Sequence record: PQ765507
Length of the DNA: 64,000 nucleotides
Source of the DNA: Escherichia phage 212
Direction: 5' to 3' (one strand)
Of this stretch, positions 14,723-14,773 are shown one piece after another. The translations under genes and the position numbers were made by a program. The notes under the pieces are model-generated. The model saw only the letters and a list, made by a program, of their open reading frames with translations. It made no database searches and had not been told where the DNA came from. How positions within the stretch are numbered: position 1 is the stretch's first letter; each line of letters opens with the position of its first letter.

Positions 14723-14773
14723 CCGTAGAACCGATTATGCTTTTATTTATAACACTGTATAATGGTTCTACGG
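14723..14773. repeat. 10-bp perfect inverted repeat enclosing late-promoter and MotA-box/-10 motifs
   Basis: CCGTAGAACC ... GGTTCTACGG with 31-nt spacer containing TGCTTTTA, tatttata and TATAAT. Confidence 0.5.

Follow-up and report, generated by a model that had tools for sequence, protein, structure and literature searches.

A hairpin-bounded promoter cassette predicted between the tail genes 18 and 19 of a Gaprivervirus phage

The element between the tail genes 18 and 19 of the phage examined here can be read, with a probability of about one half, as the core of a ~60-bp cassette of the PeSL/PmSL kind, in which a 10-bp inverted repeat (IR) encloses a loop carrying divergent promoters and would place a hairpin where the late transcript from upstream ends. 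It represents no novel class of element but a local version of the composites of promoter and stem-loop known from T4-type phages, and sequence comparison indicates that this ~60-bp form is found only in Gaprivervirus. Its main interest lies in the orphan antisense middle promoters predicted within the late module, whose core is common with the uvsY/oriF promoter. The window, that is, the whole stretch of 64,000 nucleotides analysed, comes from a Gaprivervirus phage: its 18-19 region is ~99% identical to that of Escherichia phage vB_EcoM_VR20 (VR20), and the close relatives of this region are confined to that T4-like genus (SP18, VR25, VR7, RZ and TH phages). The coordinates of the features are collected in Table 1.

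Table 1. Positions in the window of the 18/19 cassette, its flanking genes and the related middle promoters
Feature	Position	Strand	Remarks
Conserved cassette, ~60 bp	14717-14776		AGGAG(C/T), left arm, loop with promoters, right arm, TTT
Left arm CCGTAGAACC	14723-14732		
Right arm GGTTCTACGG	14764-14773		overlaps -6 to +4 of the putative middle promoter
MotA box TGCTTTTA	14738-14745	+	ttaTGCTTTTA at 14735-14745
-10 hexamer TATAAT	14758-14763	+	putative middle promoter
Predicted start of antisense (anti-gene-18) RNA	A14770	+	A of TCTA, 7 nt after the -10
Distal late box TATAAATA for gene 19	14744-14751	-	within the hairpin loop
Proximal late box TATAAATA for gene 19	14657-14664	-	
Gene 19	14113-14604	-	tail tube, 163 aa
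Gene 18	14809-16788	-	tail sheath, 659 aa
rnlB middle promoter	4581-4617	+	TGCTT, 15 nt, TATAATGGTTCTAGACC
Middle promoter between late genes 2 and 3	39643-39703	-	antisense to gene 2, carries TATAATGGTTCTAGACC; promoter itself at 39667-39703

Both tail genes belong to the late genes of the minus strand (including genes 18-24), while the plus strand is the early/middle direction, as for rnlB (4705-5712). Genes 18 and 19 have genes 20, 67, 68 and 17 as neighbours, and the element sits in the 204-nt spacer between them. For gene 19, a longer ORF (14113-14655) was rejected in favour of the one listed in Table 1. Two small frames in the spacer are not credible, namely a 15-aa micro-ORF from the ATG at 14736, which spans the promoter boxes, and a 44-aa ORF (14650-14784), which spans the promoter boxes and a segment that cannot be aligned between subgroups. 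Regarding the transcription factors, VR20 encodes MotA (VR20_271) and AsiA (VR20_264), whose genes lie beyond the window, and gp55 and gp45 are also annotated in it.

The arms are 100% complementary over 10 bp and are separated by a 31-nt spacer, as described by an earlier reading made from the sequence only. The MotA-like box on the plus strand, with TATAAT 12 nt downstream, and the late-promoter octamer on the minus strand, both reported by that reading inside the spacer, are present there, as is the second octamer nearer gene 19. It also had the plus-strand promoter pointing antisense into gene 18, which is correct, gene 18 being encoded by the minus strand. The IR is flanked by GGAGC and TTTCT, with no target-site duplication; a miniature mobile element with terminal inverted repeats was rejected on this ground and on the presence of one copy per genome. 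The arms are single-copy in the window, as seen by sequence search, and they are no widespread motif, since the matches to CCGTAGAACC-N20-45-GGTTCTACGG in IMG/VR are limited to VR20, VR25 and one chance match in a terminase-like ORF.

On the plus strand, ttaTGCTTTTA conforms to the MotA-box consensus, (a/t)(a/t)(a/t)TGCTTtA centred near -30 and at 12 +/- 1 bp from the sigma-70 -10 element (PMC2988021), with a spacing of 12 nt to TATAAT. There is no usable -35 hexamer, and a sigma-70 scan gave no plus-strand call at this promoter. The pattern TGCTT-N13-15-TANNNT occurs 19 times in the window against 9.8 expected. The start is predicted near A14770, because the mapped start of T4 PuvsY (115371) is the final A of TATAATGAATCTA. 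Downstream on the plus strand, no credible ORF, Shine-Dalgarno sequence or start codon was found, so that the putative middle promoter would be an orphan, antisense to gene 18. The sequence-only reading had considered the origin of an antisense transcript, the most natural interpretation where a consensus MotA promoter lacks a downstream ORF, with MotA and AsiA encoded by VR20; this part stands for the promoter sequence, with transcription itself at the level of a prediction.

On the opposite strand, the octamer TATAAATA occurs 19 times in the window against 4.5 expected, with a strand bias. Its two copies near the cassette have the position of T4-type late promoters, being upstream of gene 19 and on the same strand, in a phage whose relative VR20 has annotated gp55 and gp45. 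The proximal box falls in the highly conserved gene 19 leader, where 6/80 columns are variable, and the distal box is invariant in 14 genomes and retained in VR26, where it lies upstream of a further gene, 19.1. A tetraloop hairpin, CGCG-UUCG-CGCG, follows shortly after the proximal late promoter in the gene 19 leader (14632-14643, minus strand); in UPEC01, TH54 and TH57 its loop is UACG.

One perfect 10-bp IR with its arms this close is no rarity in a sequence of 64 kb. With spacers of <=40 nt, 13 seed matches were found in the window compared to 3.6 +/- 2.4 in shuffled sequences, this excess suggesting that most such IRs in the genome are real features. The predicted hairpin folds at -24.8 kcal/mol on the plus strand (z = -6.0 against shuffles) and at -20.0 kcal/mol on the minus strand (z = -5.1). 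Rfam gave no match at E <= 1 in 14500-15000; at the gathering threshold, its only matches in the window are three tRNAs in a plus-strand cluster at 43718-43948. An alternative hairpin, CTACGG..CTGTGG, flagged as terminator-like, was dropped since its 3' half is not conserved.

Conservation of the repeat in related phages, to which the sequence-only reading had appealed, was confirmed, as both arms are identical in 14 Gaprivervirus genomes, with the MotA box, the late box and the -10 likewise invariant. Across the cassette, 5/62 alignment columns vary among these genomes, compared to 26/32 and 20/33 in its flanks; no alignment of the left flank (32 nt) is possible across the VR20 and VR7 subgroups, and substitutions and indels are numerous in the right one. 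Considering the arms themselves, none of their 20 columns is variable, against 19/65 in the adjacent flanks within the VR20 group (p = 0.0045) and 22/99 at third positions of gene 19 codons in these genomes (p = 0.023), which may be taken as modest statistical support for selection on the arms. The conservation of the right arm is due, at least partly, to the promoter core that it has in common with other middle promoters. The consensus fold retains the 10-bp stem in all 14 genomes, with no covariation supporting the pairing of the arms, because they never vary. Only two loop sites are variable, both in a small apical stem, and their changes keep the late-strand pairing in 13/14 genomes (G-U to A-U and U-G to C-G). 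Since pairing is preserved by these loop changes only on that strand, they give a weak hint that the late RNA may be the relevant one.

The natural variants of the locus are informative on the relation between promoters and hairpins. In VR26, 36/38 bases of the promoter segment are kept, the left arm is gone through an 11-nt deletion and the right arm has drifted to GGGTCTAAGC, showing that the promoters can be present without the IR; a compact hairpin, AGGGGActttcaTCCCCT, lies there directly after gene 18. Meanwhile, in VR7, RZ, TH57 and DK-13 (the VR7 group), an additional late-strand gene, 19.1, separates the cassette from gene 18 and lies right of the cassette, with a compact IR (GCGCGTAT..ATACGCGC) after gene 18 that overlaps a late box, and with the 10-bp IR cassette beginning 24 nt past the 19.1 stop codon. 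Gene 19.1 is found to the left of the cassette in VR26, abutting gene 19, and is absent in the VR20 group. From the VR26 and VR7-group variants, the cassette emerges as a conserved island at an indel boundary, that of the optional gene 19.1, and one predicted hairpin comes after each late gene end, with the 10-bp IR in that slot where the compact hairpin is absent.

Gene 19.1 (VR7 L008:486-1091; VR26 L009:459-1142) belongs to phrog_5104, present in 236 phage records from many T4-like genera. Its product has no Pfam domain; it shows a stretch resembling HNH, LDHKVSIAYGFYNHI, and a weak PHROG match to endonuclease VII (E = 9e-4). The IR was also considered as the target of a homing endonuclease and rejected, because it does not differ between genomes that have gene 19.1 and those that lack it and cannot discriminate carriers from non-carriers, gp19.1 being in addition only a putative nuclease.

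The comparison was extended to 79 gp19 loci from IMG/VR, among which the strict antisense TGCTT-N13-15-TATAAT at the 18/19 junction is restricted to Gaprivervirus. In most of the other T4-like 18-19 spacers, about 70 in number, there is a hairpin of 7-12 bp whose loop has 4-10 nt; it often abuts a late box, and in T4 it is GGCCTG..CAGGCC. A compact hairpin after gene 18 is then a feature of VR26, the VR7 group and most other T4-like phages, forming a distribution complementary to that of the 10-bp IR. In the group of Klebsiella phage Marfa (L288, L293), an 8-bp IR (ACCTGAAG..CTTCAGGT), unrelated in sequence to the Gaprivervirus arms, is located ~20 nt beyond gene 18; an antisense TATAAT occupies part of its 14-nt loop, and TGCTAAA lies 13 nt upstream of that hexamer. 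In JS98-like phages, an antisense TATAATGGTTTTAGG is accompanied by a weak IR of 7 bp. The layout of a hairpin around an antisense -10 thus turns up again with arms of unrelated sequence.

The right arm had also been assigned by the sequence-only reading to a 17-mer repeated near 4601 and 39667, a link that holds in part: only the first 13 nt, TATAATGGTTCTA at 14758, are in common, and the full TATAATGGTTCTAGACC is found in the window at 4601-4617 (+) and 39667-39683 (-). The 13-nt core covers 7/10 bases of the right arm, GGTTCTA, which are common to the promoters at 4601 and 39671. In position, the rnlB promoter corresponds to T4 PrnlB. Immediately past its start, the rnlB leader holds a 7-bp IR, TAGACCC/GGGTCTA (4612-4618 / 4660-4666), which folds no better than shuffles (z about -1). 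The element between genes 2 and 3 (39643-39690) has its own perfect 10-bp IR, TCAGTGTTAT/ATAACACTGA, and its hairpin on the plus strand is followed by TTTT. A MobB-like endonuclease gene is located between gene 2 and this element in VR25, VR7, P479 and others; the minus-strand promoter at 39671 was considered as driving this optional gene, wrongly, as the gene is on the opposite strand.

Beyond the window, the 17-mer core is also found directly upstream of uvsY in VR20 (L349:6906-6922), VR25 (L351) and VR26 (L097). The VR20 gene that follows it matches Pfam UvsY at 1.9e-50 and is 61% identical to T4 UvsY, and the Gaprivervirus uvsY promoter is the positional homologue of T4 PuvsY, TATAATGAATCTAAGTCC, which is the oriF promoter. 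In total, the promoter core (13-17 nt) is repeated at three sites in the window and four in VR20, and GGTTCTA is absent from the ordinary middle promoters of the VR20 early region. Scans of IMG/VR with the 14-mers TATAATGGTTCTAG and TATAATGGTTCTAC, which are too short and gave mostly random matches, were used only where a MotA box lay upstream. Of the 58 middle promoters listed for T4, not one falls between P1 (75393) and PrnlB (109763), and the antisense promoters at 18/19 and 2/3 are therefore without a described T4 counterpart.

From the layout described above we infer promoter activity, a hairpin in vivo and an effect on RNA ends, in the following manner. The plus-strand promoter would be MotA/AsiA-dependent and act in the middle period; its RNA, antisense to gene 18 at the 3' end of the latter, would go untranslated. 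The minus-strand promoter would be of the gp55 type, with TATAAATA at 14751-14744 and a start near 14737, and would be the distal of two promoters for gene 19. Because the arms flank both internal promoters, only RNAs that traverse the whole cassette, such as late read-through from gene 18 or any plus-strand read-through, would form the hairpin, at about -20 to -25 kcal/mol; RNAs begun at either internal promoter would contain one arm and no hairpin. The hairpin may then mark where the upstream late RNA ends, or protect that 3' end, acting as a partial stop or as a barrier to exonucleases, with the internal promoters restarting transcription, or it may alternatively insulate the two transcription units. 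The role at the 3' end is considered the most plausible because of the position of the hairpin and its distribution, complementary to that of the compact hairpins. A canonical intrinsic terminator was rejected, since the loop has 31 nt (16-20 nt with inner A-U pairs) and the late strand has no U-tract; the stem is followed by GCUCCU on the late strand and only by UUUCU on the plus strand.

Other explanations start from the same features and give them different weight. It is conceivable, although doubtful, that only the promoters are functional and the IR is a by-product, for instance of a short inverted duplication of the start region when the cassette was acquired, which would persist in a young clade with arms overlapping promoter-proximal sequence. 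The promoters without IR in VR26, the presence of the right-arm GGTTCTA within the core of four promoters, the low neutral divergence nearby (third-position identity of 89-93%) and the lack of covariation are all consistent with it. However, a promoter role that would be expected to fix 10/10 bases is lacking for the left arm, and yet 0/10 are variable where the next 32 nt cannot be aligned between subgroups. In addition, VR26 lost both arms together and has a compact hairpin instead, and the hairpin-around-promoter layout recurs with unrelated arms, which also speaks against a by-product. Unlikely, too, is a cassette whose main action is on the DNA, as a substrate of recombination for the shuffling of optional genes (PeSL-mediated), with the RNA hairpin being secondary. 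The sequence-only reading had proposed a recombination hotspot, and the position does fit, at the boundary of gene 19.1, which is right of the cassette in the VR7 group, left in VR26 and absent in the VR20 group; the sister element at 2/3 likewise abuts the optional MobB-like gene, and exchange within such cassettes has been demonstrated for PeSLs (PMC2839356). The arms, however, are single-copy in the window and restricted to VR20 and VR25 in IMG/VR, the 13-17 nt common with other sites are short for homologous exchange, and no recombinant junctions were observed.

An origin of replication is less probable still: the orphan middle promoter would serve as an R-loop origin of the oriF/oriG type, the IR helping to keep the region open. 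In T4, oriF and oriG consist of a MotA promoter and an A+T-rich unwinding element and lie in late-gene territory (PMC3016281), as does the present promoter, which has no gene to express and has the same -10/start core as the Gaprivervirus uvsY promoter, the positional homologue of PuvsY/oriF. Against this, the 60 nt downstream have 65% A+T compared to a window mean of 59% (77th percentile), which does not suggest a marked unwinding element, the same core drives rnlB, an ordinary gene, and the other T4-like genera have no consensus MotA box at the junction, only degenerate matches in the Marfa-like and JS98-like phages. Of slightly lower probability again is a broader form of this idea, in which the orphan MotA promoters at 18/19 and 2/3 would be extra R-loop sites in the late block, used as origins or for sliding-clamp entry, with the IRs stabilising the opened DNA. 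It is very improbable that the arms are paired operator half-sites, 41 bp apart centre to centre, through which a dimeric DNA-binding protein of phage or host would silence the promoters. Their exact dyad symmetry, strict invariance and the overlap of one arm with the middle-promoter start would suit an operator, but the half-site is found nowhere else in the window as a pair, and the sister promoters have different IRs or none. Moreover, we know of no candidate regulator for the arm pair, and cytosine modification as in T4, if present, would hinder base-specific recognition in the major groove, a point echoed in PMC2988021. The least credible possibility is an attenuator or translational switch on gene 19, which the sequence-only reading had raised as a regulatory hairpin and in which long transcripts would mask the gene 19 start, as for T4 e and soc. 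The late promoter inside the hairpin, following the gene e paradigm, and the CUCCU pentamer after the hairpin on the late strand, resembling an anti-Shine-Dalgarno sequence, are in agreement with it; nevertheless, the arms are >110 nt from the gene 19 AUG and its ribosome-binding site, and the predicted folds of the read-through, distal-promoter and proximal-promoter leaders, long and short alike, share the same local structure at that site, with CUCCU unpaired with it.

If the reading as a PeSL/PmSL-kind cassette with a hairpin at the late 3' end is true, T4-type promoter/stem-loop cassettes would also occur inside the conserved block of virion genes, beyond the hyperplastic early regions, and a sense late and an antisense middle promoter would be combined in a single hairpin loop. 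The cassettes would again coincide with the gain or loss of optional genes, here 19.1 and the MobB-like gene. The predicted promoters are also concrete, mappable candidate origins of middle-period RNA antisense to late genes, for which VR20, with the IR, and VR26, without it, form a natural experimental pair.

Comparing the cassette with known systems, the closest are the PeSLs of T4-type phages, stem-loops that mark indels and extend over the -35 or -10 box (PMC2839356, Arbiol et al. 2010), and their Mot-box version, PmSL (PMC4122927, Comeau et al. 2014). As in these, the 18/19 cassette joins a short intergenic promoter to a predicted stable stem-loop, the overlap with promoter boxes being allowed, and is tied to optional-gene indels among close relatives, which in the known elements are also found inside core modules. 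It differs from them in having the entire promoter between its arms, together with a divergent late promoter as the second one in that loop, and in its location in the late structural module. Moreover, its putative middle promoter faces no gene, with no Shine-Dalgarno sequence or start codon, while the late promoter would serve gene 19, and the arms are single-copy instead of a repeated family, only the promoter core being repeated. PeSL-like cassettes with early promoters are present in the window at 42672-42704, 43007-43037 and 55435-55465, having 10-bp arms (TGATGGGATA/TATCCCATCA) around a loop that contains the -10 TATAAT; a small ORF, provided with a Shine-Dalgarno sequence, comes just downstream of each.

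In the T4 genes e, soc and I-TevI, a late promoter lies within the region coding for a hairpin, and only the longer transcripts hold both strands of the helix (PMC3014915). The late promoter at 18/19 is similarly placed, so that only longer transcripts would fold; however, the 3' strand in those genes masks the ribosome-binding site, unlike the present helix, so distant from the gene 19 start. The compact hairpins after gene 18, such as GGCCTGtttcggCAGGCC in T4, resemble the cassette in lying 10-35 nt after a late-gene stop and in often abutting or overlapping TATAAATA, but they have GC-rich stems and 4-10-nt loops compared to the promoter-loaded loop of 31 nt. Regarding T4 PuvsY, the 18/19 core TATAAT-G..TCTA resembles TATAATGAATCTA, with a MotA box correctly spaced from a perfect -10, whereas T4 has no middle promoter at the 18/19 junction, where activity in the present phage is predicted from the sequence. 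In T4, anti-late RNA, described in the literature of the 1970s, is produced by transcription of the strand opposite the late genes in the early and middle periods, and to our knowledge no specific anti-late promoter is known at its 18/19 junction. The putative middle promoter of the cassette would likewise transcribe the strand opposite late genes.
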